Shown: positions 14,792 through 48,690 of the stretch, one piece after another
How the letters are laid out: every line of letters begins with the position of its first letter
How positions within the stretch are numbered: the first letter of the stretch is position 1
From: Terriglobia bacterium
GTDB lineage: Bacteria; Acidobacteriota; Terriglobia; 20CM-2-55-15
Direction: 5' to 3'
DNA: 64,000 nucleotides
NCBI GenBank assembly: GCA_963664115.2
Contig: CAXWPJ010000009.1
Span: 640,001-704,000 of the forward strand
Notes under the pieces: generated by a model
The model's database searches: none
The model's input: only the letters and a program-made list of their open reading frames with translations
Told to the model about the DNA's origin: nothing
Made by a program: the position numbers and the translations under genes

Positions 14792-17786
<2,995 letters not shown>

Positions 17787-17912
17787 ATTACGATCTAATC
17801 ACTACAAAACTTCGCCCTAACGGCGCTCATTACCCATCAATATTGAATTGTCAGGGACTGCCAATCCTGGGCTCGACCCAGGACATTGGTTCTTTGACGC
17901 AATTTATCAGGT

Positions 17913-18031
<119 letters not shown>

Positions 18032-27361: not shown

Positions 27362-27781
27362 ATGTTTAACGAGTCCGAGGCCCGTTTCCTTCGCGAAATG
27401 CGGGTAGCCCGGCTGGCGACGGCCGACGCTTCCGGCCAACCTCACGTCATCCCCATTGTGTTCGCTTTTGACGGGCAACATCTCTATACACCCATCGATG
27501 AGAAGCCGAAGCGCGTCGCGCCTTTACGGTTAAAGCGTGTCCGAAACCTTCTCGAAAACAGTCAGGTTGCCATCGTCGTAGACCGCTACGACAGAGATTG
27601 GACCCAGCTCGCATGGGTTCTGGTGAGAGGAACGGGAGAGCTTGTCGAAGAAGGTGAGACGAGCCGCACCGGGATAAGCCTGTTAAAAGAAAAGTATGCT
27701 CAATACGAACAGATGCCCCTGGAAGGCCGCCCGCTGATCGTTGTTACTCCCGGTGAGGTCACGAGTTGGGGAAAGCTGTGA
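27362..27781 (+). CDS. PPOX-class split beta-barrel, putative F420-dependent oxidoreductase (Rv0121-like)
   Basis: RVARLAT..G.PH.IP.VF, DEKPK, LKRVRN, DRYD.DW.QL.WV. Confidence 0.85.
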   Translation: MFNESEARFLREMRVARLATADASGQPHVIPIVFAFDGQHLYTPIDEKPKRVAPLRLKRVRNLLENSQVAIVVDRYDRDWTQLAWVLVRGTGELVEEGETSRTGISLLKEKYAQYEQMPLEGRPLIVVTPGEVTSWGKL

Positions 27782-27791: not shown

Positions 27792-29363
27792 CTATTCCCG
27801 CAAAGCGGCACGCTCAACCTTACCCGTAGCCGTCTTGGGTAGCTCGTCCATGAACTCGACCCACCGCGGACGCTTGTAGGGCGCCATGTGGGTCTTGCAA
27901 TGCTCGATCAGTTCGGCCGAAAGTTCGTCCGACGCAGCGATTCCCTCGCGAAGCGATATAAACGCCTTCGGTTTGACCAAACCATCTCCATCGGCCCGTC
28001 CCATCACGGCACATTCATAAACCGCTTCATGAGTCCGCAAGGTGTTCTCGATTTCGACCGGTGACACCCAGATGCCGCCCGCTTTGAGCATTTCGTCCCC
28101 GCGGCCGGCATAGTGATAATAGCCGTCCTCATCGAGGTAAAACTTGTCGCCCGTAAACAGCCATTCTCCCCGAAAAGCGTTCTGGGTTTTGTGGTACTGG
28201 TGCAGATAAAACAGAGCGAAGGTCTCTCCCTTGACCATCAGATCGCCAATCTCACCGACAGGCACTTCGCTGCCGTGTTCATCAAAGATCTTAGCCTCAA
28301 ATCCATCGACCACCTTACCGATCGTGCCGGGCCTGATGTCGTCCGGCCGGTTGGACAGGAAGAGTGCGATCGCTTCGGTCGTCCCCATTCCCTCGACAAT
28401 TTCCAATCCGGTCTTTTCTTTCCACGCCTCCCAGAGCGAAGCCGGCAGTGCCTCGCCTGCGGCAGCACACAGGCGCAACGAAGACAGGTCATAATTCTCC
28501 GCAAAGCCCTCAACGGCCAACATGCTGGCGTAACCGGTCGGTACGTTGAAAAGAAATGTGGGCTTGAAGCGATCGATGGTTTCCAGGATGTACACAGATT
28601 TTCGTGGGGGCTGGGAACACAAGACCGTACTCGCACCAACATGCCACGGGGAGAACAGGTTGACACCCAGGCCATAGGTAAAAAACAATCGGGCGATAGA
28701 AAACGTTCGATCAGTTTCGCCCAGACCAAGGGTATTGATCGTGTATAGCTGGGAACTGATCGGCATGTCTTTGTGGGCGTGCTGAATTCCTTTCGGACGA
28801 CCCGTGGTCCCGCTGGTGTAGTTCAAGGTGCAGAAGTCGTCCTGGTGGGTGGGCGCCCCTTCGCGTTCCTTTGATTCGCCAGCGATCCAATCCTCGAAAC
28901 TTATAGAGTCGATCTGCGTAATCGAGCTGGTAGAGCCGATGACAACAACGTGTTTGAGGAACGGCCGCTCGGCAAGCATGTCTGCGATTTTCCCTGCCAG
29001 CGTCTGGTGAACGACCAACACCCTCGCCCGACTGTCGTCCAGCATGTATGCGTATTCAGGTGCGGTCAGGGTGGTGCTCATACCGACAGCCACACCCCCG
29101 ATCTTCATGACGCCAAAGAAAGATGTGACCCACTCCGGAACGTCGAGCGAAAGAATTGCGACGAAAGTACCCATACGAACGCCACATTTCTCCAGCGCAT
29201 TACTGACCTGGTTGACCTCTTCGGAAACTTCCCGGAACGTCATCTCCCTTTCGAGGCAGTAAAGGGCTGTTTTGTCGGCGCGGGTGGCCAGGTTGTGTTC
29301 CAGAACGTCAATGCAGTTGTAGTGCAGGGGGAGGTCAGCAATCTTCATTATGTCGACAGTCAT
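27792..29363 (-). CDS. Benzoate-CoA ligase family AMP-forming ligase
   Basis: YTSGTTGRPKG, RLFFTYGLG, AGEALP, GMGTTE, TGDK, GIWVSP.E.E, PKTATGK. Confidence 0.88.
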   Translation of the reverse strand: MTVDIMKIADLPLHYNCIDVLEHNLATRADKTALYCLEREMTFREVSEEVNQVSNALEKCGVRMGTFVAILSLDVPEWVTSFFGVMKIGGVAVGMSTTLTAPEYAYMLDDSRARVLVVHQTLAGKIADMLAERPFLKHVVVIGSTSSITQIDSISFEDWIAGESKEREGAPTHQDDFCTLNYTSGTTGRPKGIQHAHKDMPISSQLYTINTLGLGETDRTFSIARLFFTYGLGVNLFSPWHVGASTVLCSQPPRKSVYILETIDRFKPTFLFNVPTGYASMLAVEGFAENYDLSSLRLCAAAGEALPASLWEAWKEKTGLEIVEGMGTTEAIALFLSNRPDDIRPGTIGKVVDGFEAKIFDEHGSEVPVGEIGDLMVKGETFALFYLHQYHKTQNAFRGEWLFTGDKFYLDEDGYYHYAGRGDEMLKAGGIWVSPVEIENTLRTHEAVYECAVMGRADGDGLVKPKAFISLREGIAASDELSAELIEHCKTHMAPYKRPRWVEFMDELPKTATGKVERAALRE

Positions 29364-29367
29364 ATTA

Positions 29368-30168
29368 TTACGAGTCGTCTGAATGAAAATTCGGAGGACG
29401 CTTGCCCTGGATCGCGTCCACACCTTCGAGCAGGTCCTTACCAAAAAAGCCCATCATTTCCAGGGCCAGCGAGTGATCAAAAATCGGAGCCGCCTGAAGC
29501 AACCACTGGTTCAGGGCACGCTTGGTAAATCTGTTGGCATCAGTCGGTCCGGTTGCGACCTTTGTCGCCACTTCCATGGCCTTGTCGAGCAACTCGTCAT
29601 CAGGAGTGCAGAGGCTGACCAGACCAATACGTTCAGCTTCGGGTCCCTTGATGAAATCGCAGGTCAGCAAGTAATACTTGGCTTTCGCCATACCGCACAA
29701 CAGCGGCCAGATGATAGCGCCGTGATCACCGGCTGCAACTCCGAGGCGTGTGTGTCCGTCAGCCAGTCGGGCACTTTCGGCCATGATACTGATGTCTGAG
29801 AGAAGGGCCACCACGACTCCGGCACCGACCGCAACACCGTTCACAGCCGAAATGATAGGCTTGGAGCAATGCAGCATGTTGTAGACGATGTTACGGGCTT
29901 CATCGAGAATAGCGACGATCTCCTCGTAGTTTCCGTGGGATTCTTTCACTCGTTTGAGGTCGCCACCAGCTGAAAACGCCCTTCCTGCTCCTGTAATGAC
30001 CGCCACGCGCACTTCGGGGTCGCGGTCTATCATCGGCCAGATATCCACAAAAGCTTGGTGCATGGCCGCGTCGGCCATATTCAATTTGTCGGGTTTGTTT
30101 AGGGTTATCCAGAGAATGCCGTTGTCACGTCGCTCGAACAAGATGTCTTTAAAAACAGAATAGTCCAT
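29368..30168 (-). CDS. Crotonase-superfamily protein lacking the usual catalytic glutamates
   Basis: FSAGGDL, AVNGVAVGAG, DGHTRLGVAAGDH. Confidence 0.88.
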   Translation of the reverse strand: MDYSVFKDILFERRDNGILWITLNKPDKLNMADAAMHQAFVDIWPMIDRDPEVRVAVITGAGRAFSAGGDLKRVKESHGNYEEIVAILDEARNIVYNMLHCSKPIISAVNGVAVGAGVVVALLSDISIMAESARLADGHTRLGVAAGDHGAIIWPLLCGMAKAKYYLLTCDFIKGPEAERIGLVSLCTPDDELLDKAMEVATKVATGPTDANRFTKRALNQWLLQAAPIFDHSLALEMMGFFGKDLLEGVDAIQGKRPPNFHSDDS

Positions 30169-30185
30169 TGAGAATTCCTTCTATT

Positions 30186-31868
30186 TCAAATGACCTGGCT
30201 GGAGTTATAAACGCCGTAAACGCCACGGAGCGACTCGCAGATTTCACCGATCGTTGCGTAAGCTTTGACACTATCGATCAACACAGGAATGAGGTTATCC
30301 CCGGCTCTGGCAGCGTCCCCCAGATCGCTAAGCGATTGTGTGAGCAGAGCGTCGTCGCGTTTTTCCCTGAGCACTGCGAGTTTCGCGATCTGTTTTCGCT
30401 GGGTTTCGGGATTGCCTTTGAAAACTGGGATCTCTTCGGTACCCTCACTCTGGTACTCGTTGAGACCGACCAGAATTCTGTCCTTCGTTTCGATCTGACG
30501 CTGATATCGGTAGGCTGCGTCGGACAACTCGCGGTGGTAGTAACCGTTGTCGATGCACGACACGGCTCCACCCAGGGCCTCGATCTTCTCCAGGTACTGA
30601 TAAACTTCAGCCTCAAGGGAATCGGTCAGGGACTCGATCGCATACGAACCACCCAGGGCATCCGCCGTACCGGTGATGCCGGACTCATTCGCCACGATCT
30701 GTTGGGTCCTCAGAGCGATGGTCGCGGCCTCCTCGGTCGGAATGGCATAGGCTTCGTCATAAGACGAGGTGGCGATTGTCTGTACGCCGCCCAAGGCTGC
30801 AGCCATTGTTTCGATAGCCACGCGAGCAATGTTGTTTAAGGGCTGCTGGGCCACCAGGTTGCCACCCAAGGTGTATGCGAAAATCTTCAGCTTCATTGTG
30901 TCTGGATTTTCAGCACCATAGCGTTCCCTCATCAGTTTCGCCCAAATGCGACGCCCTGCCCTGAACTTCGCCACTTCCTCTAGAACGTCTATACCCGCCG
31001 AAAGGAAGGTCCATATCTGCCCGGCGAAGTCGTCGATTTTTAGACCGCGACCGATTACTTCATCCACATAGGCCAGACCATTGGCGAAGGTAAAAGCCAA
31101 CTCCTGCGCCGCGGTGCTTCCGCTGTCGCGGATGTGATAGCCACTCATTGCCAAGGGCGTCCACGACCCCAAATTCCGGCCGCAATATTCGATAACGTCG
31201 GACGACAACTTCAGGCCTGCTTCCGGCGGAAGAATGTATGTGCCCCGCGCGATGTATTCCTTGAGCACATCGTTCTGCAGAAACATGCGGGTGTTCGCGA
31301 TATTGACGCCCTTCTTTTCGAATGCTGCGATGTACATGGCTGCGATGATCGGGCCAATGGAATTCGCCGTGGTTCGAATCTGGCGGACCTTTTCAAGGGG
31401 AATGCCTTCAAAGAGCCGTTCCATGTCGTCGAGGGAACCGATATGGACTCCCGTTACCCCCACTTCGCCTGCAGCGAGAGGGTGGTCGGCGTCATATCCG
31501 CATTGAGTGGGGAGATCCAGAGCAATAGAGAACCCGGTTTGACCCCGCTCAAGCAAGGCCCGGTAACGCTCGTTCGCCTCTTCGGCTGAGCCAAAGCCGG
31601 AGTACATGCCCATGACCCAGAAGTTGCCCCGATACATCGTCGGGCTGACGCCCCGCGTGAAGGGGTAGGTCCCTGGATAACCCAGCTTCTCTTCAGCGCT
31701 TCCCGCCTCAGCGCCGTTGCCGGAAATGTCCTCGCGGGTATAGGTTCGCTCCAGCGGCTTCCCGGAGATCGTCGTGAATTCGTCTCGCCGCTCAGCTTCA
31801 GCTTCGAGGTGCGGATCGACAACCTTGGCTTGCCACTCGGCTTTGTTCGTCACATTTTCGTTGGACAT
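30186..31868 (-). CDS. AdoCbl-dependent acyl-CoA mutase, large (substrate-binding) subunit, atypical active site
   Basis: PGTYPFTRG, GQTG.S.A.DLPTQ.GYD.DH, QNDVLKEYIARG, SGYH, A.A.GG.Q; no C-terminal B12 domain. Confidence 0.92.
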   Translation of the reverse strand: MSNENVTNKAEWQAKVVDPHLEAEAERRDEFTTISGKPLERTYTREDISGNGAEAGSAEEKLGYPGTYPFTRGVSPTMYRGNFWVMGMYSGFGSAEEANERYRALLERGQTGFSIALDLPTQCGYDADHPLAAGEVGVTGVHIGSLDDMERLFEGIPLEKVRQIRTTANSIGPIIAAMYIAAFEKKGVNIANTRMFLQNDVLKEYIARGTYILPPEAGLKLSSDVIEYCGRNLGSWTPLAMSGYHIRDSGSTAAQELAFTFANGLAYVDEVIGRGLKIDDFAGQIWTFLSAGIDVLEEVAKFRAGRRIWAKLMRERYGAENPDTMKLKIFAYTLGGNLVAQQPLNNIARVAIETMAAALGGVQTIATSSYDEAYAIPTEEAATIALRTQQIVANESGITGTADALGGSYAIESLTDSLEAEVYQYLEKIEALGGAVSCIDNGYYHRELSDAAYRYQRQIETKDRILVGLNEYQSEGTEEIPVFKGNPETQRKQIAKLAVLREKRDDALLTQSLSDLGDAARAGDNLIPVLIDSVKAYATIGEICESLRGVYGVYNSSQVI

Positions 31869-31879
31869 TCGAAGGTTCT

Positions 31880-33100
31880 CTAAGCGTCCACCTTGACGAT
31901 GACTGATTCCGCTTCGCCGATACCACCACAGATGGTCACGAGTCCGTAGAACGGCCGGTTCTCGCCCGAAGCCTTCCGGCGCCGACCCAGTTCGTGAACC
32001 AAGGTGATGATCAGCCGCGCGCCGGTAGCGCCGGTGGGGTGACCCAGGGCAATGGCGCCGCCATTGACGTTGGTCTTTGCCCGGACAGCTTCGACCTTTT
32101 CTGGGTCGCGACCGCCCATGATCAAAGTCGAAACCAGCGGCATCGCCGCAAAGGCCTCGTTGATCTCGATCAAGTCGATATCCTCAACCGTCATACCCGC
32201 TTTTTCCAGCGCAAGCCGAGCCCCCTCGGCCGGAATCGATGCCAGCTTGTCGGGATGGCCGGAAGCCATAGCCCAGGCCATAAGGCTTGCGAGGGGCTTC
32301 GTACCTCTCTTCTTCGCCTCCTCAGCGGACATCAATAGCATCGCGGAGGACCCGGTACTGAGACCCGGAGCGTTACCGGGAGTGACGGTCGGACTGCCAT
32401 AAATAGTCTTTAACTTGGCCAGTTTCTCCAACGAGCTGTCGGCTCGCGGAGACTCATCTTCCTCCACTATGATTGGATCTCCCCGACGTTGCGGCACTTC
32501 AATCGAAACCAGTTCATCTTTGAAATATCCCGCCTCTTTGGCCTTGAAATAATTCTGATGGCTCCTGAGGGCCCAGGCGTCCTGTTCCTCACGCGTCACA
32601 TTGAATTCAACGGCCTCTTCTCCCGCCTGAAGAGCACGGGGTTTGCCCGTCATCGGGCAGGCGATGATCAACTGGTCTTTGAGGGTGACATCCCCCAGGC
32701 GTTTTCCCCATCGAAGGTCGTTCAAGAAGTACGGAACCTTGCTCATGTTCTCAACACCGCCCGCGAGGACGACCTTGGACTCGCCAAGGCGGATGGAGCG
32801 TGACCCTAAGTTGACAGCAGCAATGGACGAACAGCAGGCCCGGTCTACCGTATACGCAACCCGATTGGCAGGGATTCCGGATTCGATCAAGACCTGCCGG
32901 GCAATCGAGCGGTCCGCACCCGGCAAGTTGACGCCTGTCGCCACTTCTTCTACGTCCGCGGGCTCGACACCGGCCCGCCGAATCGCTTCGGCCATGACCC
33001 GGCCACCGAGTTCGGGTAAGCTAAAATCCTTCAGGGCACCGCCGAACTTGCCGAAGGGGCTCCGCACGGCGCTTATGACAACGACTTCTTCCTGACTCAC
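31880..33100 (-). CDS. Thiolase (acetyl-CoA acyltransferase family)
   Basis: RSPFG, nucleophile loop DRACCSS, GG.E.MS, NEAF, GHP.GATG, second Cys in TICGG. Confidence 0.92.
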   Translation of the reverse strand: MSQEEVVVISAVRSPFGKFGGALKDFSLPELGGRVMAEAIRRAGVEPADVEEVATGVNLPGADRSIARQVLIESGIPANRVAYTVDRACCSSIAAVNLGSRSIRLGESKVVLAGGVENMSKVPYFLNDLRWGKRLGDVTLKDQLIIACPMTGKPRALQAGEEAVEFNVTREEQDAWALRSHQNYFKAKEAGYFKDELVSIEVPQRRGDPIIVEEDESPRADSSLEKLAKLKTIYGSPTVTPGNAPGLSTGSSAMLLMSAEEAKKRGTKPLASLMAWAMASGHPDKLASIPAEGARLALEKAGMTVEDIDLIEINEAFAAMPLVSTLIMGGRDPEKVEAVRAKTNVNGGAIALGHPTGATGARLIITLVHELGRRRKASGENRPFYGLVTICGGIGEAESVIVKVDA

Positions 33101-33143
33101 AATATTTCTCCTGCATCCTCTATGAACATTTCCGACACTCTGT

Positions 33144-34364
33144 CTAAATGACTTTTTGCTCTTTCAATTCTGCTATCTGCTCTTGGGTGTAACCCAGTTC
33201 CCCGCTCAGAATTTCAGCGTTGTGCTCCCCTAACAACGGCGCCGGCTCCGTGCGTGGTTCCGGGTTCGCCGACAGTTTGGCCACTGGACCCACAAGCTTC
33301 ACCGAACCCATCACAGGATCGGGCACATCGATCAGCAGCTTTCGGGCGGCAACGTGGGGATCTTCAAAGATGTCCTGAGCGTTTTGCACGGGACCGACGG
33401 GCAGCCCAGCAGCCAATAGTTTCTCGGTTGCTTCGGCGCGGGTGTTTCCGGCAAACCACTCGTTGATAATATCGCCCAACCAACCGGACATATTCCCGGC
33501 GCGCTCGGGACCCGAAGTCGTTCCCTCGTGTCCGGCCAGATCGGGTCGGCCGATCGCCTCGCAGAACTTGCCCCAGTCGCGTTCAGTGGCGACGATCAGG
33601 CCCACATAGCCATCCGTGCACTCGAACGGCCCCCAAGGGGCCATATACGGCTCGCGCCCCCGTGAGAGGGTGGTTCCAGCCAGAGAGTAGGCCGAGACTG
33701 AACGTTCGGCCAATCCAATGATGGTGTCGTACATGGAGACATCAATGTACTGCCCTTTGCCGGTTTCCTTGCGCTGATACAGGGCCAAAGCAATGGCGTT
33801 GGCCGCGTTCATACCCGAGACGATGTCGCCCAGGGCCGAGCCCAGCCACGTTGGAGGGCCGTCAGCCTGACCGCAGGAATGCATCATCCCTCCCATCGCC
33901 TGGGCCACGATGTCGTAGGCCGGCCGCTTACTGTAAGGTCCCAGGAAGCCATCCATGCTGCCAAAGCCCGAAATACAGGTGTAAATGAGGCCGGGATTGA
34001 GTTCTGACAATGCTTTGTAGCCGACACCCATATCATCGAGCAGACCGGGCCGGAAGTTTTCCACAACGACGTCCGATTCCTTCGCCAAATCGCGAAAGAG
34101 CTCACGGCCTTTGTCGCTCTTGAGGTTAAGCGTCAGGCTGCGCTTGTTGCGATTAAACCGGAGGAAGTAACCACTTTGTGTTTCTCCCTTGTCGTTCTTG
34201 AGTTTCGGCGCACCTCCGCGGGCGGTGTCACCACCTTGGGGGCGTTCTACTTTGATGACGTTGGCCCCCTGGTCGGCCAGCATCATGGTGCAATACGGGC
34301 CGGCCACTTGAATTTCGAAGCTCAGCACTTTTATGCCTTCGAGAGGTCTTCTGGGGCGACTCAC
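33144..34364 (-). CDS. Family III (CaiB/BaiF) CoA-transferase
   Basis: AGPYC...LADQGA.VIKVE, NRNKRS, ENFRPG, AYD, catalytic Asp in ALGD, APLLGEH; GGAGG RBS. Confidence 0.93.
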   Translation of the reverse strand: MSRPRRPLEGIKVLSFEIQVAGPYCTMMLADQGANVIKVERPQGGDTARGGAPKLKNDKGETQSGYFLRFNRNKRSLTLNLKSDKGRELFRDLAKESDVVVENFRPGLLDDMGVGYKALSELNPGLIYTCISGFGSMDGFLGPYSKRPAYDIVAQAMGGMMHSCGQADGPPTWLGSALGDIVSGMNAANAIALALYQRKETGKGQYIDVSMYDTIIGLAERSVSAYSLAGTTLSRGREPYMAPWGPFECTDGYVGLIVATERDWGKFCEAIGRPDLAGHEGTTSGPERAGNMSGWLGDIINEWFAGNTRAEATEKLLAAGLPVGPVQNAQDIFEDPHVAARKLLIDVPDPVMGSVKLVGPVAKLSANPEPRTEPAPLLGEHNAEILSGELGYTQEQIAELKEQKVI

Positions 34365-34868
34365 TTATGTCCTCCAAGATTTGGAACGGAGATCAAGAAG
34401 AGGTAAACAGAAGGATTGAACTTTATAATACTTCCCTTCCCAACACAAGTGACCCACCTGACTGGACTTCGGCCACATTGAATCCCTGAAACTCCGGATA
34501 TTTGTTTCCTGATTCTGGTAAATCATTGAGCGGTGCTAATGGAACCGATCTGCCTGTCAGGTTCGTGGAGAACCCGGTTCGGCCGCACTTGCGGCGTTGG
34601 TTCTCCCTCGCTCCATCAATAACTGACCCGTCTGAGATCACGTTCAGCAAATCGAGACCGGCGATCATCTGAAAGGGCTACTGAATTGAGTGTCGACTCC
34701 CTGACTTGGGCACACTCCGACTTTTTTGATTCTGAAGCTCAATACTCCTTTATTATTATAACTCTGGGTACTGCTACTCTTTGAGTGATCGCTCGAGCGA
34801 CCCTCTTACGGGTCGAATTGCAGACCCGGGATCGCAGCTCGGACTCCCTTTCCGGAGACAATCGAACT

Positions 34869-35270
34869 ATGACGAATGAGAAGATCCGCGTAGTCGTTGC
34901 CAAGCCCGGCCTCGACGGTCATGACCGCGGTGCAAAAGTGATTGCTCGAGCCTTTCTTGATGCCGGATTCGAAGTCGTCTACACGGGGCTGCGGCAAACG
35001 CCTGAACAAATCGTCAATGCTGCTCTGCAGGAAGATGCTGACGTTATTGGACTTTCGGTGCTTTCCGGAGCACATATGACGCTGTGCCCGCGAATTACGG
35101 AACTGATGAAGAAGGAAGGCCTCGACGACGTGATGCTCTTAGTCGGCGGCATTATTCCGGATCAGGACATCCAGGAGCTGAAAAAATGCGGTGTTTCTGA
35201 GATTTTTCAACCCGGAGCGTCCACCGTGGACATCGTGGCATACGTCCAGGAAAACGTACGCGGGAAATAA
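34869..35270 (+). CDS. Cobalamin-binding small subunit of an acyl-CoA mutase (IcmB-like)
   Basis: DGHDRG base-off/His-on motif, S.LSGAH, GGIIP. Confidence 0.93.
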
Positions 35271-35375: not shown

Positions 35376-36029
35376 ATGCGATATGCCCTGGTACCGGTTA
35401 AGGAATTGAGCCAGGCGAAGGAACGGCTGGCCCCGCTGCTCTCGCCCGATGAACGCCAAGCGCTGGCCGTCGCCATGCTTGATGACGTACTCTCGACCCT
35501 GGAGCAATCATCGGGACTGGAACGTATTGCATTGGTCACGCGGGATGCACACGCCACATCGCTGGCCGTGGGGAGAGGATTTGAGGTGGTCGATGAAGGA
35601 TTGGGTCAGGGCTTGACCGACGCAGTCGAAACGGGCGTCCGGGCATGCCGCGACCGCGGCGCCAGTTCCCTGGCAGTCATTCCCGGAGATATCCCCCTGG
35701 TGACGCCGGCTGACATCGATTCCGTGATGGACCACGGTGCCCGGTACGAAGTTGTCATCGTCCCGTCGTGGGACAGCCGCGGCACGAACGCTGTTCTCTT
35801 AGAGCCGCCTGACGTGCTTCCATTGCGATTCAGCTCCTGGAGCTTTTTTCCGCACGTCAAGGCTGCCAAGCAGGCGGGACTCTCCTACAAGGTGCTGCGG
35901 CTGCCGCGTGTGGCTCTGGATGTCGACACACCGGAAGATCTGGTGCGATTGATGCCGCAGGCGATGGGAACACGCAGTTATTCCGTGTTGGAAGACATGG
36001 GATTTCTCGCCAAAATAGAGAGACGATAG
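35376..36029 (+). CDS. cofC: F420 precursor guanylyltransferase CofC/FbiD
   Basis: VPVK....AK.RL, AML.DV, PGDIP, GTNA, DVDTP.DL. Confidence 0.93.
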   Translation: MRYALVPVKELSQAKERLAPLLSPDERQALAVAMLDDVLSTLEQSSGLERIALVTRDAHATSLAVGRGFEVVDEGLGQGLTDAVETGVRACRDRGASSLAVIPGDIPLVTPADIDSVMDHGARYEVVIVPSWDSRGTNAVLLEPPDVLPLRFSSWSFFPHVKAAKQAGLSYKVLRLPRVALDVDTPEDLVRLMPQAMGTRSYSVLEDMGFLAKIERR

Positions 36030-36041
36030 CAAATACCTGAT

Positions 36042-36797
36042 ATGTCTTCTGAAATGCGCATCATCGGATTGAGGGGATTACCCGACATTACACCGGGACT
36101 CGATCTCGCTTCTACAATCGCCGAAGCGTTAAAGGCCGAGAGCCTTACATTGGGCGCAGATGACATTCTCGTGGTCACGCAAAAGGTGATTTCCAAGTCA
36201 GAGGGGCGGTTGGTGGATCTCCAAACGGTTACGCCTTCCCCCTTTGCCGAACAGTTTGCCCTCAGGCACGAAAAGGATCCCCGCGTCGTCGAGGTGGTTT
36301 TGCGGGAAAGCAGGCGCATTGTAAAAATGGATCAGGGCACGATTATTTCAGAAACGCAACATGGGTTCGTGTGCGCCAATGCCGGCGTGGACGAATCGAA
36401 TCTGAAAGATGAAGGAACCGTTGCCTTGTTGCCCGAGGACGCCGATCTCTCGGCAAGAAAACTACGGTCTGCTATCGGTCAACTCACCGGAGTTGAACCC
36501 GCAATCATTATCTCAGATACCTTCGGCCGCCCCTGGCGCGATGGCCTGGTCGACGTTGCGATCGGTGTGGCGGGGATGGAAGCGCTGAAGGACTACCGCG
36601 ACCTGCCGGACACCGAAGGGCGCGTTATGAAAGTAACAGCGGTGGCCGTCGCAGACGAAATTGCTTCTGCAGCGGAGCTGGTGATGGGCAAATTGGACAG
36701 GGTTCCGGTAGCGCTTGTACGGGGCTATGCATACACACCGGGCGACGGAGGCGTTGGAGAGCTTATCCGGCCCCCCGAAAAGGACTTGTTTCGATAG
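36042..36797 (+). CDS. cofE: F420-0:L-glutamate ligase CofE (single domain, no nitroreductase fusion)
   Basis: QKVISKSEGR, CANAGVDESN, SDTFGRPWR.G, ADEIASAA.LVMG, DLFR C-terminus. Confidence 0.95.
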   Translation: MSSEMRIIGLRGLPDITPGLDLASTIAEALKAESLTLGADDILVVTQKVISKSEGRLVDLQTVTPSPFAEQFALRHEKDPRVVEVVLRESRRIVKMDQGTIISETQHGFVCANAGVDESNLKDEGTVALLPEDADLSARKLRSAIGQLTGVEPAIIISDTFGRPWRDGLVDVAIGVAGMEALKDYRDLPDTEGRVMKVTAVAVADEIASAAELVMGKLDRVPVALVRGYAYTPGDGGVGELIRPPEKDLFR

Positions 36798-36816: not shown

Positions 36817-37470
36817 GTGAAGATCGCGATCTTGGGTGGAACTGGGGAACAGGGCCCTGGCCTGGCGTTGCGCTGGGCGAAAGCGGGAGAGGAAATCATC
36901 ATTGGATCGCGCACCAGTGAGAAGGCGGAAAAGGTTGCGGCGGAGTTGAACGTCGAACAACCCGGCGCAGCAATCACCGGCATGGCGAACGCCGCCGCCG
37001 CCGAAGCGGCTGAAATCGTCGTCCTGACCGTACCCTATTCAGCACACCTGAAAACTCTGGAAAGCGTCAAGCAGCAGGTTCAGGGGAAAGTATTTATCGA
37101 TGTTTCGGTCCCGCTGGATCCTGAGAATCCAAGGCATATGAAGATGCCGGCGGCAGGCTCGGCCACAGAGGAAGCGCAGGAATTCCTCGGCCCGGAAACA
37201 AAGGTTGTCGCTGCGTTCCAGAATGTTGCGGCCCACCTGCTCCGCGATCCCGACCACGCCATCGACTGTGACGTAATGATTTGCGGGAACGACAAGGACG
37301 CGCGGAAGACGGTCCGGGAGTTGGTGGCCAAGATGGGCTTTAGAGTTCACGACGTGGGCACAGCCGACAGCGCTCGTGTAATCGAAGGCATGACCTCGAT
37401 TCTGATTCGCCTGAACATTCGAAACAAGGTGAAGGCTGGAGGGATCCGCCTGACTGGTCTGCCGGGATAG
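36817..37470 (+). CDS. npdG: F420H2:NADP+ oxidoreductase (Fno/NpdG)
   Basis: GGTGEQG.GLA.RW, IGSR, LTVPY, VPL, AFQNVAA; GTG start after AAGGAGG. Confidence 0.92.
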   Translation: MKIAILGGTGEQGPGLALRWAKAGEEIIIGSRTSEKAEKVAAELNVEQPGAAITGMANAAAAEAAEIVVLTVPYSAHLKTLESVKQQVQGKVFIDVSVPLDPENPRHMKMPAAGSATEEAQEFLGPETKVVAAFQNVAAHLLRDPDHAIDCDVMICGNDKDARKTVRELVAKMGFRVHDVGTADSARVIEGMTSILIRLNIRNKVKAGGIRLTGLPG

Positions 37471-37502: not shown

Positions 37503-38786
37503 TCACTTGGCGATCACCTTAGCTCGACGCGAATAGCGAAACTCTTTCGACGTGGCCAGCTTGGTGTAAGAGCCGAAGCGTTGGTCGGAATCTTCGATGG
37601 AGTCGAGCGGGGTCGGGGTATCGTCGTTCTCGTTTGCGTCGTATACGTGAAGCAATTCGTAATTCGTCTTGCGTTGGGCCGGAACGCGTCCTGCATCGCG
37701 AATCAGACGGCGGAGTTCTTTCGGTGGAATAAGCTGTCCGTATTGGGCGCCGGCTGAGGTGGAAATACTCTCGTTCATCAGTGTCCCGCCGACGTCGTTC
37801 GCCCCCGCCCCCAGCAGCAATTGTGCAAGCCGCGGTCCCTCCTTCACCCATGATGACTGGAGGTTGGGTATGGAAGCGCCCAGCATTAATCGAGCAACAG
37901 CATGCAGTTTAACCACCTCCATACCGCTCGGGCCGGGACGCATGTTCTTGTGCACACGATGCTGATACATCGGAGCTTCCTGGGAAATCATCGAAAGAGG
38001 TACGAACTCTGTGATCCCACCCGTGTCGTGCTGAATGTCCCGCAGCAACTCCATGTGTTTCACCCAATGTAGCGGCGTTTCAATGTGGCCATACATTATC
38101 GTTGAGGTCGTAGGAATGCCGAGGCTGTGGGCCGTTCGAATGACCTCGACCCACTGCTTCACCGTAATGCGTCCCGGGGAAATCACGTCACGCACGTCCT
38201 GGTCGAGAATTTCCGCCGACGTGCCCGGAAGGGAATCCAGTCCGGCCTCTTTGAGGGCCTTAAGATAGTCCTCGATCGACGTACCGGACCGTGTCGCGCC
38301 ATAAAGCACCTCTTCGGGCGAAAACGCGTGTATGTGGACATCCGGAACGACCTTCTTGACCTCTCGCGTGAGATCCACGTAGAGGTTCCCATCCATGTCC
38401 GGTGGCATGCCGGCTTGCATGCACACTTCCGTTGCGCCCATTTCCACGGCTTCAACCGTTCGCCGGATGATTTCGTCAAAGGTTAGAAGGTAGCCCTCTT
38501 CGTTTCGATACGTCCGGCTGAATGCACAGAAACCGCAAGCCTTCACGCAGACGTTGGTGAAGTTAATGTTGCGATTGATGACGTAGGTCACCGTGTCGCC
38601 CACCTGGATCTTTCTCAACTGGTCGGCGGCAAAAACGGTTGCGTGAAAGTCCGCTCCGTTTGTCTCGCACAATCGGACCGCTTCGGTCCCGGAGATCTCT
38701 TCACCTTCCAACGCCCGGGACAGAATTCTGTTTATGTCCGGATCGATGTTACCCGGCAAAGAAGGCAGCGTATCGCGTGTCATCAA
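37503..38786 (-). CDS. cofH: FO synthase subunit CofH (radical SAM)
   Basis: NRNINFTNVC...C.FC, PGTSAEIL, STIMYGH, EFVPL, Q.SWVK.G, GGTLMNE.IS..AG. Confidence 0.93.
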   Translation of the reverse strand: MMTRDTLPSLPGNIDPDINRILSRALEGEEISGTEAVRLCETNGADFHATVFAADQLRKIQVGDTVTYVINRNINFTNVCVKACGFCAFSRTYRNEEGYLLTFDEIIRRTVEAVEMGATEVCMQAGMPPDMDGNLYVDLTREVKKVVPDVHIHAFSPEEVLYGATRSGTSIEDYLKALKEAGLDSLPGTSAEILDQDVRDVISPGRITVKQWVEVIRTAHSLGIPTTSTIMYGHIETPLHWVKHMELLRDIQHDTGGITEFVPLSMISQEAPMYQHRVHKNMRPGPSGMEVVKLHAVARLMLGASIPNLQSSWVKEGPRLAQLLLGAGANDVGGTLMNESISTSAGAQYGQLIPPKELRRLIRDAGRVPAQRKTNYELLHVYDANENDDTPTPLDSIEDSDQRFGSYTKLATSKEFRYSRRAKVIAK

Positions 38787-38861: not shown

Positions 38862-40013
38862 CTATACAATCGCAGCTTGAAGATCCAACACTATCGCTTC
38901 CAGACGGTCGGGAAGAAATCCCTGACGCTCAATGTATTCATCGTAGATTGCCAGCCGCTCGCACAACTCAAACCCCTCTTCCCGACAGGTATCAGCAAGC
39001 GATTGGATGTGTGGCCAGGCCGCTTCAGGATTGACGTAGTCCTCGGTTACCGGTGAAATACCGCCCCAGTCGTTGATACCCGCGCGAAGCAAAAGCCTGT
39101 AATCGTCGGGATTCAGGTTCGGGGGAACCTGAAGGTTCATGTCCGGGCCCAAAATCAGGCGGGCTACGGCAACGGTCTTCGCGATTTCCATTGCATCCGG
39201 CTCGGGAAACTCCGACATGCGCGTGTCAGCCTTGGCACGGAAGTTCTGGACAATAACTTCCTGGATGTGACCGTAGGTTTCGTGAAGATCACGAATAGCG
39301 ATGAGACTGTCGACAATTTCATCGCGGGTTTCTCCAATCCCGATGAGAATTCCTGTCGTGAAGGCAATAGACAACTCTCCCGCCTCACGCAGCATTCGCA
39401 GACGAACTTCAGGGTGCTTGTCCGGTGCTGAAAAGTGCGGCATGCCTTTCAGGGACAGCCGTGGACTGACCGTCTCAAGCATCAAACCGAGGCTGGCGTT
39501 CACCGGTTTCAGTAACTCCATCTCCTCGAAACTGAGCACACCTGCATTCGTGTGCGGCAGGAACCCGTGCTCAGCTGCCATTTCACAGGCACGGAACACG
39601 TATTCAGCAGTCGTCTGGTGCCCAAAACTGGCCAGAGTTTCGCGATAATGTGGATAGGCCACCTCCGGTTTATCGCCCAGGCACATCAGTGCTTCCTTGC
39701 AACCCTGCGCACTTCCCAACTCAAGCGTGTGGCGGATATCGCTCGGCGTCATCGTCCATTCATCCGGGTCGGTCGGATCCTTCCGGAAGGTGCAATAGGA
39801 GCAACGGTCCCGGCATAGATTCGTAACGGGGAGAAATACTTTTCTCGAGTAGGTCACGACCCTGCCCTTCGACCGATCGCGCAGCTGGCCTGCCGTCTCA
39901 ATGACGGACTCGACTTCAGAGGCTTCGCAGTGAATCAGGCGGTATCCCTCTTCAGGCGAAAGGGATTCACCGGCAAGTGCCTTTTCCAGAATCATGTCGA
40001 TTCGCAGGGGCAT
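38862..40013 (-). CDS. cofG: FO synthase subunit CofG (radical SAM)
   Basis: TYSRKVF.P.T.LCRDRC.YC.F, LPH.NAG, HIQEVIVQNF, QVPPNL, D.GGISP.T.D.VNPE..WP. Confidence 0.95.
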   Translation of the reverse strand: MPLRIDMILEKALAGESLSPEEGYRLIHCEASEVESVIETAGQLRDRSKGRVVTYSRKVFLPVTNLCRDRCSYCTFRKDPTDPDEWTMTPSDIRHTLELGSAQGCKEALMCLGDKPEVAYPHYRETLASFGHQTTAEYVFRACEMAAEHGFLPHTNAGVLSFEEMELLKPVNASLGLMLETVSPRLSLKGMPHFSAPDKHPEVRLRMLREAGELSIAFTTGILIGIGETRDEIVDSLIAIRDLHETYGHIQEVIVQNFRAKADTRMSEFPEPDAMEIAKTVAVARLILGPDMNLQVPPNLNPDDYRLLLRAGINDWGGISPVTEDYVNPEAAWPHIQSLADTCREEGFELCERLAIYDEYIERQGFLPDRLEAIVLDLQAAIV

Positions 40014-40074: not shown

Positions 40075-41028
40075 CTACAATTTCCCAAACTTCGTATTGG
40101 AGACGATCTTTTCAACAATCGAATACGGATCCTGCTTACGATCCGCAATTTCACCGATAATCCTATCCAGGTCTCCGTCGGCAAAGACATCATCGAGAGC
40201 TGTGCTCACCAGCCGCACCTGCAACTGTGTCATCAGCCGCCCCCGGGCAGCAGCGCGTTTCTTCTGGTTCGAAATATTCGAATCCTCGAAAAACTGCCTA
40301 CACTCGGCGATTCTCTCGACTAATTCGGCGACGCCGTCACCCTTAGTCGCCACCGTCTTGACGATAGTAGGATTCCAACCGTCCGCACGATGTGCCAACG
40401 ACAGCATTGCGGTGATCGCACTCTCCATTTTTTCAGCCCCGGGACGGTCCGATTTGTTGATCACGAAAATATCCGCGATTTCCATGATGCCGGCCTTGAT
40501 TGTCTGAATGTCATCTCCCATTCCCGGAACCAGGACCACCACCGAAACGTCTGCCAGCTTTGCGATCTCAATCTCATCCTGGCCCACGCCCACCGTTTCG
40601 ACGATGATCGGGTCGCGGCCGGCAGCATCCATGACGGTTACCACGTCCGCCGTTGTCGCGGCCAGACCGCCCATGTTGCCTCGCGTTGCCATGCTTCTGA
40701 TATAGATTTCGGGGTCGACACCCAGTGTCTGCATCCGAATGCGATCACCAAGAATCGCGCCGCCGGTGAACGGGCTGCTTGGATCCACGGCGACAATACC
40801 AACTCTTTCGTCTCTCTGCCTGCAGTCCAGCGCCAGTCGATCCACAAGCGTACTCTTACCCGCCCCGGGACTTCCGGTTACGCCAAGAATCCTCGACTGT
40901 CCACTCTTGGAAAACAATTGCTGCAGGATGTCCAGGCTGTCGGGCGAACGATTTTCGACTCGCGTGATCACGCGAGCCAAAGCACGTATCTCACCGTTTA
41001 AGAGACCCGATATAAGGTCTTTATCCAT
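40075..41028 (-). CDS. meaB: MeaB/ArgK GTPase, B12 mutase chaperone (paralogue 1)
   Basis: GSPGAGKST, VDPSSP.TGGA.LGDR.RM, ETVGVGQ, NKSD. Confidence 0.92.
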   Translation of the reverse strand: MDKDLISGLLNGEIRALARVITRVENRSPDSLDILQQLFSKSGQSRILGVTGSPGAGKSTLVDRLALDCRQRDERVGIVAVDPSSPFTGGAILGDRIRMQTLGVDPEIYIRSMATRGNMGGLAATTADVVTVMDAAGRDPIIVETVGVGQDEIEIAKLADVSVVVLVPGMGDDIQTIKAGIMEIADIFVINKSDRPGAEKMESAITAMLSLAHRADGWNPTIVKTVATKGDGVAELVERIAECRQFFEDSNISNQKKRAAARGRLMTQLQVRLVSTALDDVFADGDLDRIIGEIADRKQDPYSIVEKIVSNTKFGKL

Positions 41029-41108
41029 CAGGAACTTAGACGACTAGAGGGAAGTTTTAGGGTGTTGATTCCCATGGATCGCATTGTATCGCATAGAATA
41101 CGGCGCTT

Positions 41109-41510
41109 ATGATGGAAGTCAAACTACAGACCTACTGGCCCGATTGTGATCCGGCCGGCATCGTTTATTTTGCCAATTTTTTCCGCTTCATCGGGTTGGC
41201 CGAAGAAGAGCTGTTTCTCCTCGCCAAACAGCGCCGCCAGAAAATGCTCGACGCACATGACCTCTGGATGCCGCGTGTAGAAACGCACGCAAAATTTCTC
41301 AAACCGATTCAGAACGGCAGTGCGATTCGAGTGCGTATGGACGCGCAGTTTCAGGGTGAAAAGACGGTACGTTACGACTTTGAGGTGCTGGACAACGCGA
41401 CGGATGCTTTGCTCGCTACCGGTTTCCTGACAGCCGTCTGCGTGGACCGGAAAACGTTCAAGGCAAAACCAATACCTGAAGAAATAAGAAACGTGCTCCG
41501 CGGGACTTGA
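41109..41510 (+). CDS. Hotdog-fold acyl-CoA thioesterase (4HBT/YbgC family)
   Basis: DCDPAGIVYF.N motif, 133 aa. Confidence 0.85.
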   Translation: MMEVKLQTYWPDCDPAGIVYFANFFRFIGLAEEELFLLAKQRRQKMLDAHDLWMPRVETHAKFLKPIQNGSAIRVRMDAQFQGEKTVRYDFEVLDNATDALLATGFLTAVCVDRKTFKAKPIPEEIRNVLRGT

Positions 41511-41512
41511 AA

Positions 41513-41553
41513 GGGACGGACACTTCAGAATCGGATTCTGAAGTGTCCGTCCC
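41513..41553. repeat. Palindromic REP-like element, copy 2 (between convergent genes; possible bidirectional terminator)
   Basis: GGGACGGACACTTCAGAATC-G-GATTCTGAAGTGTCCGTCCC, 20-bp arms. Confidence 0.85.
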
Positions 41554-41559
41554 CTGAGA

Positions 41560-42489
41560 CTAATCCTGAATGGACGGCAGAACGTCTTTAGCGAACCATT
41601 CAATTTTCTCTCGACGCTCGGGCCAGCGGCCTTTCATGAACTGAAGCGCCATGTGTTTCACGCCGATGTCCTTGAACTTCTGCAGCGCCGCGATCAACTG
41701 CTCTGGCGTACCCTCGAGTACGTCGTCCTGCTGGTCCACCGGATCCTTCGTGATCTCAATGGGACGACAGCAGCAAAGGTCGACCTGACCTTCCCTTCCG
41801 AGTTCAGCGGCTGCGGTCTGAACCCTGCCGTATTTGGCCGCAAGATCTTCAGCAGAAATTCTCACGTGGTAAGAGAACCATGCGTCGCCATACTTGGCGG
41901 CACGTTTTACTGCCGCTTCACTTTCTCCCCCCGTCCAGATCGGAAAGCGAGGTTTCTGGACCGGCTTCGGGTTGACCGCCAGCTCAGCAAACTGGTAGTG
42001 CTTTCCGTTGTAGCTCGGCTTCTCTGACTTCCAGAGGAGGTTGAAGATCTCAAGCTGCTCATTGCCCATCGCTCCCCTCTTCTTGAAGGGAACACCCAAG
42101 GCGTTGAATTCTTCGATCATCCAGCCAATCCCGGCGCCAAGGATCATCCGTCCGTTTGAAAGCGTGTCGATAGACGTGGCAACCCGGGCCGTGTAAAGCG
42201 GGTGCCGGAAGGGCAGGACGGCAACGCTGATACCGAGTTTGACTTTCTTAGTGACGCCGGCCAGGAAGGACAGGCAAGTCAGCGGCTCCAGGAAAGGAAC
42301 CTCGGGAGAGACGAACCACTGGGAGTTATCCTTGTAGGGATAAGCCGTTTCCATCTTCCAGGGATTAACAAGGCGTTCCGCCGCCCAAACCGAAGAGTAG
42401 CCCAGATTCTCGGCCTGCTGGGCAGCGTCAGTCAATACTTCTGGAACTGCTGCTCGCCCGGAGACGGGGAGAAAGACTCCAAGTTGCAT
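41560..42489 (-). CDS. Luciferase-like (LLM) putative F420-dependent oxidoreductase (Rv2161c-like)
   Basis: AE.LGY.S.W, EPL..L..LA, LP.RHP, D.LS.GR..LG.G.GW..EEF..LGV.F..RG, PKPVQ.P..PIW.GG. Confidence 0.85.
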   Translation of the reverse strand: MQLGVFLPVSGRAAVPEVLTDAAQQAENLGYSSVWAAERLVNPWKMETAYPYKDNSQWFVSPEVPFLEPLTCLSFLAGVTKKVKLGISVAVLPFRHPLYTARVATSIDTLSNGRMILGAGIGWMIEEFNALGVPFKKRGAMGNEQLEIFNLLWKSEKPSYNGKHYQFAELAVNPKPVQKPRFPIWTGGESEAAVKRAAKYGDAWFSYHVRISAEDLAAKYGRVQTAAAELGREGQVDLCCCRPIEITKDPVDQQDDVLEGTPEQLIAALQKFKDIGVKHMALQFMKGRWPERREKIEWFAKDVLPSIQD

Positions 42490-42951
42490 AAGGGATATGC
42501 CTCCTTCTTAAACATTAGCGAATTAGTGCTGTTGGCGAATCTTCGGCGAATCTTCAAATCACTCGCAGGTGTAGGAGGAGATAGGAGCTCTGCCGATCGG
42601 CCAGAATAGCAGATGCGCCGCATTGGGTGCAAGCGAGGGTAGCGGGCCCAAGCAACCGTGGGGCAGCACCTTCGGGCGTGCATTTTCAAGTGCTGGCACG
42701 ATCCGCTCACGCCACATGGTCATTCAATAAGGCGACTGGGGGAAACCATCTCCTCCGTCTCGTTTTCAATCACTTCCAGCCCCGTCCAGGCCCAACATTC
42801 CTGATATATACTGGGCGCGCAGTCAGATCAGCGGATAGCCGTCCTACGGGGCCGTCAGGAGCAAATCTGAATGTCGCCGGGTGGTCCCGAACCTGTTTTA
42901 AATGAGGCTGTTGGAGATGTTCAAGCGGAAGTCTGCGAGAGAATTACACAC

Positions 42952-45105
42952 ATGACCGGGGAGCGTCATCAGAGACCCGAGGACTGGGAAAAACTGGCCT
43001 CAAAGGAGGCCAAGGGCCGTCCTTTGAGTGAGCTTGACTGGCATACACCGGAAGGCATCGTTGTCAAGCCTCTGTACACGGCCCGGGATCTGGACCAGAT
43101 TGCCCACCTCGGCAGTCTACCCGGCTTTGCCCCCTACGTCCGGGGGACGAAGGCCACGATGTATACCGGCCGGCCATGGACGGTTCGACAGTACGCGGGT
43201 TTTTCAACAGCCGAGGAATCCAACGCGTTTTATCGGACTAACCTCGCCGCGGGTCAGACAGGTCTGTCGGTTGCGTTCGACCTTGCAACACACCGCGGTT
43301 ATGACTCGGATCACCCGCGTGTCGTCGGTGACGTTGGGAATGCCGGAGTCGCAATCGACACGGTCGAAGACATGAAGATACTCTTCGACGAGATACCGCT
43401 GGAACAGATGTCGGTATCGATGACGATGAACGGGGCCGTGCTGCCAATTATGGCCATGTACATCGTTGCTGGGGAGGAACAGGGTGTCAGTCCGGATCGA
43501 CTCGCCGGCACGTTGCAGAACGACATCCTGAAAGAATTCATGGTGCGGAACACCTATATTTACCCGCCCGGGCCTTCGATGCGAATCGTCGCCGACATCA
43601 TTTCCTATACCGCCCGGAACATGCCCAAATTCAATTCGGTGTCCATATCCGGCTACCACATGCTGGAAGCCGGAGCGACCAGCGTGCAGGAATTGGGTTT
43701 TACTCTGGCCGATGGCGTGGAATACGTCCGCGCGGCGCTCGACAACGGACTGAAGGTCGATCAATTTGCGCCACGACTCTCTTTTTTCTTCGGCATCGGT
43801 ATGAATTTTTTCATGGAAGTCGCAAAACTTCGGGCCGCAAGACTGCTCTGGTCGTCACTCATACAGGAGCTGTTTTCCCCCGAAGACCCCAAATCGTTGA
43901 TGCTCAGGACGCACTGCCAGACGTCCGGAGTCAGCCTGACGAGCCGTGACCCTTACAACAACATCATTCGCACGACCGTAGAAGCTATGGCCGCGGCTCT
44001 GGGTGGAACGCAGTCGCTCCATACAAATTCGTTCGACGAGGCGCTGGCGCTACCCACGCCGTTTTCGGCTCATATCGCACGCAACACCCAGTTGGTGCTG
44101 CAAGAAGAAACCGGGATTACCAATGTCGTCGATCCACTGGCGGGTTCCTACTACGTCGAGAGCCTGACCCATTCCCTGGTCGCAGAAGCCCGCAAACTCA
44201 TCGACGAAGTCGAGGATCTGGGAGGCATGACCCAGGCGGTCGAATCAGGCATGCCGAAGATGCGAATCGAACAGGCAGCCGCCCTTCGCCAGGCCCGCGT
44301 CGACCGCGGCGAAGAGGTCGTCGTTGGAGTCAACAAGTATCAACGTGCGGACGAACCCGAAGTCGAAATCCGTGACATCAACAATACAACTGTGCGCTCC
44401 GTCCAGATCGGGCGTCTGGAGACCGTTCGCAGAGAAAGAGACCCATCGGAATGCCAGGCTCGACTGGATGCTCTGACCACTGCAGCCGAAGAACGCGCCA
44501 CAAACCTGCTTGAACTGGCCGTCGGTGCTGCGCGGGCGCGCGCCAGCGTCGGCGAAATTTCTGACGCCATGGAAAAAGTATATGGGCGCCATCGGGCAGT
44601 TATACGCTCGATTAGCGGCGTCTACAGTTCGGCCTACGAAGGAGACAGCGGCTTCATGAAGATCCAGCAAGAGATCGAAGCGTTTGCGCGGGAAGAGGGC
44701 CGCCGGCCCCGCATCCTGATAGCCAAACTGGGTCAGGACGGACATGACCGCGGAGCCAAGGTAATCGCGACAGCGTTCGCTGACATCGGGTTTGACGTCG
44801 ACATTGGACCGCTATTTCAAACTCCGGAAGAAGCGGCCCGTCACGCCATCGAAAACGACGTTCACGTGGTCGGCGTGTCATCTCAAGCAGCAGGACATAA
44901 AACCCTGGTTCCCCAATTATTGGATTCGCTCAAGAAAAACGGTGCAGACGAGATCATCGTCGTATGCGGCGGCGTCATCCCACCGAAGGACTACGGCGCA
45001 CTGAAAGCGGCCGGCGTCGCCGCAGTGTACGGACCGGGAACGAATATACCGGCAGCGGCCGTCGAGGTGCTGAACCTGATTCGGGAAAGGCGAAAGGCTG
45101 CCTGA
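42952..45105 (+). CDS. scpA: Methylmalonyl-CoA mutase (fused B12 domain)
   Basis: [40 protein letters not shown]. Confidence 0.96.
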
Positions 45106-45136
45106 CTCTCTAACGACAGGTTAATCGGAGACTTTC

Positions 45137-46669: not shown

Positions 46670-46698
46670 AAGCAAGGCGATTTCAAAACAGTAACAAC

Positions 46699-48684: not shown

Positions 48685-48690
48685 CGCGGC

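Follow-up and report, generated by a model that had tools for sequence, protein, structure and literature searches.

F420 Genes in the Window

The window analyzed here, a 64-kb stretch of DNA (positions 640001–704000 of contig C9), belongs to G000, the genome under study, a 4.89-Mb assembly that is 96.96% complete with 1.04% contamination. Near-identical pieces of the window were found in a sequencing run labelled as a sponge metagenome. At 35376–36029 on the forward strand lies cofC, which encodes a C3-phosphate guanylyltransferase of 217 residues (P0001; TIGR03552, 167 bits, cut-off 105). It is followed on the same strand by cofE (36042–36797; TIGR01916, 273 bits), specifying an F420-0 glutamyl ligase of 251 residues, and by fno/npdG (36817–37470; TIGR01915, 231 bits, cut-off 150), specifying an F420H2:NADP+ oxidoreductase. 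Both FO synthase subunits are encoded on the reverse strand, by cofH (37503–38786; TIGR03551, 480 bits, cut-off 374) and cofG (38862–40013; TIGR03550, 446 bits, cut-off 213), as is a predicted F420-dependent oxidoreductase of the LLM class (41560–42489; TIGR03619, 223 bits, cut-off 167).

A cofD of proteobacterial type, referred to here as CofD-a, occupies 26377–27339 on the forward strand (TIGR01819, 287 bits, cut-off 257). Directly 3′ of it, on the same strand, is a gene for a predicted F420-dependent oxidoreductase of the PPOX class (Rv0121-like; 27362–27781; TIGR03668, 156 bits, cut-off 119). These two genes lie 8 kb upstream of cofC, with acyl-CoA genes between. The PPOX-class gene adjoins cofD-a in all five genomes of the genus, compared with none of the 13 other cofD loci checked. 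All five biosynthetic genes (cofG, cofH, cofC, cofD, and cofE) pass their NCBIfam cut-offs, and a promoter and terminator scan returned signals at chance level.

The initial annotation described CofE as a single-domain protein. This is borne out, since it matches TIGR01916 and only positions 10–243 of the 449-position FbiB model, which correspond to the N-terminal half without the reductase domain. Six predicted F420-dependent enzymes in G000 score above their cut-offs: Fno, three TIGR03619 proteins, one TIGR03560 protein, and one TIGR03668 protein. Two more luciferase-like proteins and one PF04075 match have no F420 family assignment.

The product of 35376–36029 is a genuine CofC by every test applied. 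It combines a MobA-like fold with an F420 gene context, having cofE, fno, cofG, cofH, and cofD nearby. The catalytic and carboxylate-binding residues K9, K15, D105, T137, N138, S156, D182, and D184 are all kept; the three Mg-binding Asp residues (D105, D182, and D184), K9, K15, and the T137/N138/S156 carboxylate site are invariant in all 121 closest sequences. An alignment-based model (pLDDT 97) matches the Mycetohabitans enzyme 7P97 with Z 28.9 (rmsd 1.5 Å) and the mycobacterial FbiD structure 6BWH with Z 28.1; the single-sequence model reached a pLDDT of 44. Because the two structures tie within 1 Z unit, the predicted fold is silent on the substrate of CofC and cannot decide it.

Ser153 at the Substrate Switch Position

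The substrate loop of CofC reads L-R-F-S153-S-W-S156-F-F-P-H. In its core, F152-S153-S154-W155-S156 (35829–35843, forward strand), Gly is found at neither 153 nor 154, and Ser153 is encoded by AGC at 35832–35834 (forward strand). Pairwise phmmer alignments and a 149-sequence profile both align the loop without gaps to F-F-S-G-P-S-F of the 3-PG enzyme 7P97 and to R-F-G-P-D-S of M. tuberculosis FbiD (6BWG), making Ser153 equivalent to S162 of Mycetohabitans and G163 of M. tuberculosis. PDB chain numbering was counted by hand, with a 27-residue offset that recovers the published K20, K26, D116, H145, T147, N148, and S165. The initial annotation had placed a Ser at the specificity position from an alignment made by eye and had proposed a comparison with Mycetohabitans CofC and M. 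tuberculosis FbiD; that comparison agrees, with Ser rather than Gly at the specificity site.

A misalignment or one-residue slip is excluded, as the pairwise and profile alignments share an ungapped register from a conserved aromatic residue to the invariant S156. An assembly error is likewise excluded because the first two bases of codon 153 are unchanged in contigs from six studies (runs X2, X8, X12, X13, X15, and X16). Three of these six runs contain another, more distant contig covering codon 153, with T as the third base, which still specifies Ser.

Ser occupies position 153 in 8 of the 121 closest sequences, the query included, and Gly occupies it in the other 113; among 150 representatives, Gly is found there in 143 and Ser in none. 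Given this prevalence of Gly, the Ser is, on sequence comparison, beyond chance. It occurs in four of the five genomes of this uncultured Terriglobia genus, the fifth (G003) having Gly. It is absent from 53 other Acidobacteriota CofCs (two sets of 18 and 35), from 14 CofCs of the group around G041, and from 22 metagenome loci covering the loop (23 were retrieved, one of them truncated). The CofCs of the four Ser genomes are 70–85% identical, and their Ser codons are all AGY, one transition from the GGC of the congener G003.

In a tree built without 7P97, CofC is nested among Gly sequences. Its identity of 63–77% to Gly-bearing sisters, against 33% to 7P97, indicates that Ser was gained separately from Mycetohabitans, and we read Ser153 as a recent Gly-to-Ser change within one genus, from a Gly ancestor. 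The history of the site was followed in one quick tree, which included the 14 CofCs of the G041 group, and in careful trees of 25 and 23 rows. With column 153 dropped, the 25-row tree needs at least three changes and rejects a single Ser clade (p = 3e-5); once P0006 and the long-branch P0122 are removed (23 rows), a single Ser origin is not rejected (p = 0.097). P0006, from one 921-base contig, is a Gly sequence inside the Ser clade, and the site can therefore revert. One gain of Ser with one possible reversion would fit these trees.

That Ser is retained does not indicate selection, since across the four Ser genomes 18 of 30 two-fold synonymous sites stay equally unchanged (the other 12 vary); selection keeping Ser is thus not supported. 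No CofC column other than 153 cleanly splits eight Ser members from eight Gly members.

Helper Residues and the Next-Position Glycine

In the assays reported for Mycetohabitans CofC, S162 is required for 3-PG use and acts through main-chain rotation rather than its hydroxyl (PMC8764529), in keeping with the statement in the initial annotation that Ser at this position favors 3-PG. In the same enzyme, M91L lowers 3-PG use, C95L lowers it strongly while C95A does not, and H145 is dispensable (PMC8764529). By phmmer alignment, the equivalents here are Leu80 (35613–35615; L92 in M. tuberculosis), Val84 (35625–35627), and Arg135 (35778–35780; T152 in M. smegmatis), all on the forward strand, so that none of the Mycetohabitans-type helper residues Met91, Cys95, and His145 is present. 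Arg135 is found in all 121 clade members, whether they have Gly or Ser at 153, and also in 14 of 35 Gly enzymes; it might stand in for His145.

The glycine of the loop is shifted one place on in 7P97 (S-G-P-S) and in M. mazei CofC (Y-G-S-S). Among the 150 representatives, Gly at this next position occurs in six of the seven non-Gly enzymes versus 4 of the 143 Gly ones (Fisher p = 1e-7, the kin among them not being independent), from which we infer that it may be linked to 3-PG use. All 18 Ser proteins examined lack it, 17 with S-S-W-S and one with S-Y-W-S, several of them being near-identical or duplicate. M. tuberculosis FbiD also lacks it, and, judging from that protein, the glycine-free loop is probably closer to that of the M. 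smegmatis single mutant described below, which is inactive, than to that of the Mycetohabitans enzyme. Table S1 of PMC8764529 gives the M. mazei residue as T139; in the PDB chain, counted by hand, this position is Tyr. We treat T139 as a typographical error; if right, M. mazei CofC would be a further Thr enzyme for which that source reports no 3-PG use.

Compared with Mycetohabitans MycB3-CofC (FbiD3PG; PDB 7P97), the enzyme studied here has the same fold, Ser at the switch position, and the equivalents of T147, N148, S165, and the three Asp residues. Both organisms have a single-domain CofE, and no dehydro-F420 reductase was found in either. The differences are the 33% identity, the three helper residues, the loop (S-S-W-S here, S-G-P-S there), and the FO synthase genes, which are split into cofG and cofH here and correspond to fbiC in Mycetohabitans. 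In addition, Fno and five further predicted F420-dependent enzymes are encoded here, whereas none is known in Mycetohabitans from the sources consulted. The PEP route, represented by mycobacterial FbiD/FbiA/FbiB and by Thermomicrobium CofC/CofD/FbiE, likewise shares the fold. Mycobacterial FbiD also has Leu at the L92 position and no Gly after the switch position; it differs in having G163 where Ser stands here, and the FbiB C-terminal domain and FbiE of this route are missing from G000.

Published Activities of Ser, Thr, and Gly Enzymes

All five natural Ser/Thr CofCs assayed in PMC8764529 took some 3-PG in the standard assay, which supports 3-PG tolerance. Among them are three archaeal enzymes (Ca. 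Hydrothermarchaeota, BMS3Abin16, and BMS3Bbin15) that, paired with M. jannaschii CofD, accepted 3-PG to some extent, with a preference for 2-PL (PMC8764529). As in the present case, these gained Ser or Thr independently outside Mycetohabitans, and they are the closest precedent for tolerance. They differ in their 2-PL background, the cognate pairs being specific for 2-PL (PMC8764529). Of the archaeal enzymes, the two that PMC8764529 reports with their own CofD showed no 3-PG turnover.

In M. smegmatis FbiD, G169S alone gave no 3-PG turnover in the reported assay, and G169S combined with T152H gave 19.6% (PMC8764529). Because this single mutant and the two archaeal cognate pairs took no 3-PG, Ser alone is insufficient in the published assays. 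The Gly enzyme of Ca. Entotheonella factor showed 8% 3-PG with M. jannaschii CofD; with its own CofD it shifted to PEP and took no 3-PG (PMC8764529). CofD filters intermediates, and the bacterial CofC/CofD pairs assayed with their own CofD chose PEP or 3-PG (PMC8764529).

The initial annotation called this organism a candidate producer of 3PG-F420. The word candidate is fair, and the word producer goes further than the published assays: for the authors of PMC8764529 the residue is diagnostic of "specificity or tolerance", which does not extend to production.

Search for a Dehydro-F420 Reductase

The initial annotation saw no FbiE-type nitroreductase in the window and suggested a genome search for fbiE. 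In both the window and the 97% complete genome, TIGR03553 has no match, and a phmmer search with the T. roseum nitroreductase found none among 41,485 ORFs. The query, WP_012643075.1, is taken as a putative FbiE from its place two genes after cofC on a plasmid and its TIGR03553 score of 163 bits. G000 encodes no single-domain nitroreductase; the nitroreductase fold occurs there only in two SagB-type tandem proteins of ~515 residues. The TIGR00736 protein, an archaeal Dus-like candidate reductase, is absent from all five genomes of the genus.

The same absence extends to Gly-bearing relatives. No FbiE was found in 41 Terriglobia genomes (best TIGR03553 score 54 bits) or in 31 genomes around G041 (best score 55 bits), compared with 163 bits for T. 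roseum, and most CofCs of both sets have Gly at the switch position. In five genomes (G003, G005, G010, G019, and G024), cofD and cofG score over cut-off along with a Gly CofC, and FbiE is missing. The congener G003 shares with G000 the gene cluster, CofD-a, and the PPOX gene.

Because Gly relatives, including G003, also lack FbiE, its absence does not discriminate between substrates, and as a pointer to 3PG-F420 it carries little of the weight that the initial annotation gave it. The absence instead shows what appears to be a wider gap in F420 completion. FbiE was found in none of the 71 other genomes searched (Terriglobia and around G041), which implies that many bacteria with a full set of cof genes finish F420 by an undescribed way. 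The passages of PMC6450877 and PMC10949242 drawn on here likewise leave open the reduction step in organisms with a single-domain CofE.

A Proposed Mixed Origin of the Pathway

Over full-length matches, CofC (65–78%), CofE (63–72%), and Fno (~75–78%) are closely identical to the products of an Entotheonellia-related cofD-cofC-cofE-fno operon. This operon type, represented by G041, by P0047 (labelled Ca. Entotheonellia), and by the 23 metagenome loci, shares with the window the cofC-cofE-fno order, the F-x-S-W-S-F loop, Arg135, and the lack of FbiE. It differs in having Gly153 in all 22 loci covering the loop and Glu80 in all 21 covering that position. It also has its own cofD before cofC, 35–45% identical to CofD-a, in place of the distant cofD-a of the window.

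CofD-a is ~41% identical to the CofD beside the donor-type cofC in G041; its closest relatives are proteobacterial proteins, of which the named homologues are 58–60% identical, and one Tolypothrix protein (65%). CofD-a is likely the working partner of CofC. A second cofD, at 970369–971370 of contig C2, adjoins a hydrolase gene, as does the cofD-cofC pair in two sister genera (g4 and g10); it has lost its cofC neighbor, and its conserved motifs have diverged. In CofD-a, 19 columns are common to the four Ser genomes and differ from G003 and G041, and G003 has the most distant CofD-a.

These identities suggest that the genus rebuilt its pathway from parts of different origin, the donors named being leads given by identity. 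CofD would have been replaced by the proteobacterial type and Glu80 by Leu, with Gly153 changing to Ser later. Given such a mixed origin, adaptation of CofC to a new partner is plausible, which keeps alive the possibility that 3PG-F420 is made.

Interpretation of Ser153

Ser153 is a rare, real change at a known switch, and tolerance of 3-PG is a more likely outcome than a switch to it. Our preferred reading, with a probability of roughly 45%, is partial 3-PG tolerance with a main cofactor derived from PEP, 3PG-F420 being at most a side product. CofC is outside the Mycetohabitans type, though its function may be partly alike. CofG and CofH would make FO, and CofC would couple GTP to a C3 phosphate. 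The Ser153 side chain would nudge the carboxylate so that 3-PG can react, and Leu80, Val84, and the loop lacking a next-position Gly would likely hold the pocket nearer to a PEP-type geometry. CofD-a would then select the intermediate, most likely EPPG, giving dehydro-F420-0, to which CofE would add glutamates.

The enol would be left unreduced or be acted on by some reducing enzyme other than FbiE and FbiB. As G000 has neither a single-domain nitroreductase nor a TIGR00736 protein, a PEP route implies either an unstable cofactor or a novel reductase. The reduction step, or its absence, must apply equally to the Gly-bearing relatives, which probably build their cofactor mostly from PEP. Against this reading, the position is exactly the published switch, at which Gly is otherwise almost fixed; H145 is dispensable in Mycetohabitans CofC (PMC8764529), and Arg135 might substitute for it here.

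Next in weight, possible but on balance doubtful, is an independent switch of the Ser clade to 3-PG. CofC would make GPPG, CofD-a would pass it to FO, and CofE would add glutamates, so that 3PG-F420 would serve Fno and the LLM and PPOX enzymes as the main cofactor, with no reduction step. The Ser falls exactly on the switch position, is derived within the genus, and occurs in four of five genomes, all of which argues for this; replacement of CofD by the proteobacterial type and of Glu80 by Leu would have preceded the Ser. Fno can use 3PG-F420, its KM being similar, and CofE exerts no filtering (10.1101/670455). In the proposal of Hasan et al., the 3-PG switch is explained by a background of this kind, lacking a known dehydro-F420 reductase, although here the lack is common to the Gly relatives. 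Neither of the two non-Mycetohabitans Ser/Thr pairs reported with their own CofD made 3PG-F420 (PMC8764529). None of Met91, Cys95, His145, and the next-position Gly is present; further, retention of Ser bears no mark of selection, and no second column separates Ser from Gly members.

We consider it improbable that Ser153 is functionally silent, such that the PEP-type backbone is kept, no 3-PG is activated, and CofC acts as the Gly enzyme of G003 does. A parallel is offered by G169S of M. smegmatis, which is inactive with 3-PG (PMC8764529); the parallel may extend to the loop because M. tuberculosis FbiD likewise lacks the next-position Gly. The Ser and Gly codons are one transition apart, and one reversion was seen. 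Against a silent Ser, 3-PG was used to some extent by each of the five natural Ser/Thr enzymes, and even the Gly enzyme of Ca. Entotheonella factor reached 8% with M. jannaschii CofD (PMC8764529). A large residue at the 145 position also rescued G169S in the reported assays, and Arg occupies that position here. Formation of classical F420 directly from 2-phospholactate, with no reductase needed and Ser153 incidental or disfavoring PEP, would account for the lack of FbiE whether a genome has Ser or Gly, but it is very improbable, as this route is described for Euryarchaeota, the sources consulted name no enzyme that makes 2-PL, and bacterial pairs with their own CofD chose PEP or 3-PG (PMC8764529).

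Significance

In the sources consulted, demonstrations of 3PG-F420 are limited to Mycetohabitans and to biogas sludge with no named producer. No F420-dependent enzyme is known in Mycetohabitans from these sources, so that 3PG-F420 is as yet only a candidate natural cofactor. Neither a Ser CofC nor a 3PG-F420 producer was found reported for the Acidobacteria in the literature searched, the scope of which stopped short of bioRxiv supplements and subscription journals.

We regard it as rather unlikely, though worth stating, that a marine acidobacterial genus with a pathway of mixed origin and no reductase reached 3PG-F420 independently, through a single base substitution in a loop without Gly. 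If true, this would be the first identified 3PG-F420 producer outside fungal endosymbionts and the first organism in which native Fno, LLM, and PPOX enzymes run on 3PG-F420, and G003 would represent the pre-switch state. G000 (Ser) and G003 (Gly) form a natural pair, with the cluster in common and one transition between them at the site. Production of 3PG-F420 would mark a second origin of 3-PG preference, with the first native users; production of dehydro-F420 would draw attention to the gap in F420 completion described above and mean that the "diagnostic" residue over-predicts.

A Candidate Maturation Gene

Directly after the window's cofD (cofD-a) lies an Rv0121-like PPOX gene (27362-27781, + strand). 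This gene adjoins cofD-a on its 3' side in all five genomes of the genus, versus none of the 13 other cofD loci checked; its product is a candidate participant in cofactor maturation, for example in dehydro-F420 reduction. The CofD-a protein itself shares 65% identity with CofD of Tolypothrix sp. NIES-4075 (P0286), above the named proteobacterial CofDs.

No match at the level of FbiE, the nitroreductase-type dehydro-F420 reductase, was found in 71 other genomes (G001-G071), comprising Terriglobia and those around G041, a genome with an Entotheonellia-type cofD-cofC-cofE-fno operon. Many of these 71 genomes carry cofD together with a Gly-type CofC. The only nitroreductase-fold proteins in the source genome are two SagB-type tandem proteins of ~515 aa each, encoded at G000:C2:583200-584750 (L003) and G000:C5:28370-29910 (L005). 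At the CofC switch position, which is Ser153 here and usually Gly, seven natural CofCs have Glu, Asp, or Ala (P0150, P0161, P0195, P0219, P0223, P0256, and P0261); six of the seven have a Gly one position on.

A Second cofD

We detected a second cofD (L002) at G000:C2:970369-971370 (- strand), scoring 254 bits, slightly below the cut-off. Its cofC neighbor is lost and its conserved motifs are altered, and it may therefore have a different job. This gene is retained in 5/5 genus genomes and in the three g3 genomes checked, all of which lack cofC and cofG.

FO Supply in Relatives

Nine genomes of family f1 (genera g4, g5, g10, and g11) have kept cofC with cofG never above the cut-off (G007, G008, G013, G014, G017, G018, G021, G023, and G079), a pattern that suggests FO salvage. 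The cofG match of G041 (G041:C8:122949-123851) contains one TGA stop; FO synthesis may thus be broken in this genome, or the genome may be mis-assembled there.

Surrounding Genes

Acyl-CoA genes lie between and beside the cof genes (window positions 27792-35270 and 40075-49689). They include a benzoate-CoA-ligase-like gene, an enoyl-CoA hydratase, a divergent split B12 mutase, a thiolase, and a CoA transferase, together with two MeaB-like GTPases, a full methylmalonyl-CoA mutase, and carboxylase-like genes. Their order is mostly retained in three congeners (G001, G003, and G004). The window also holds a complete rRNA operon whose spacer carries two tRNAs (12552-18031), followed next by transposase-like ORFs (18529-21165).
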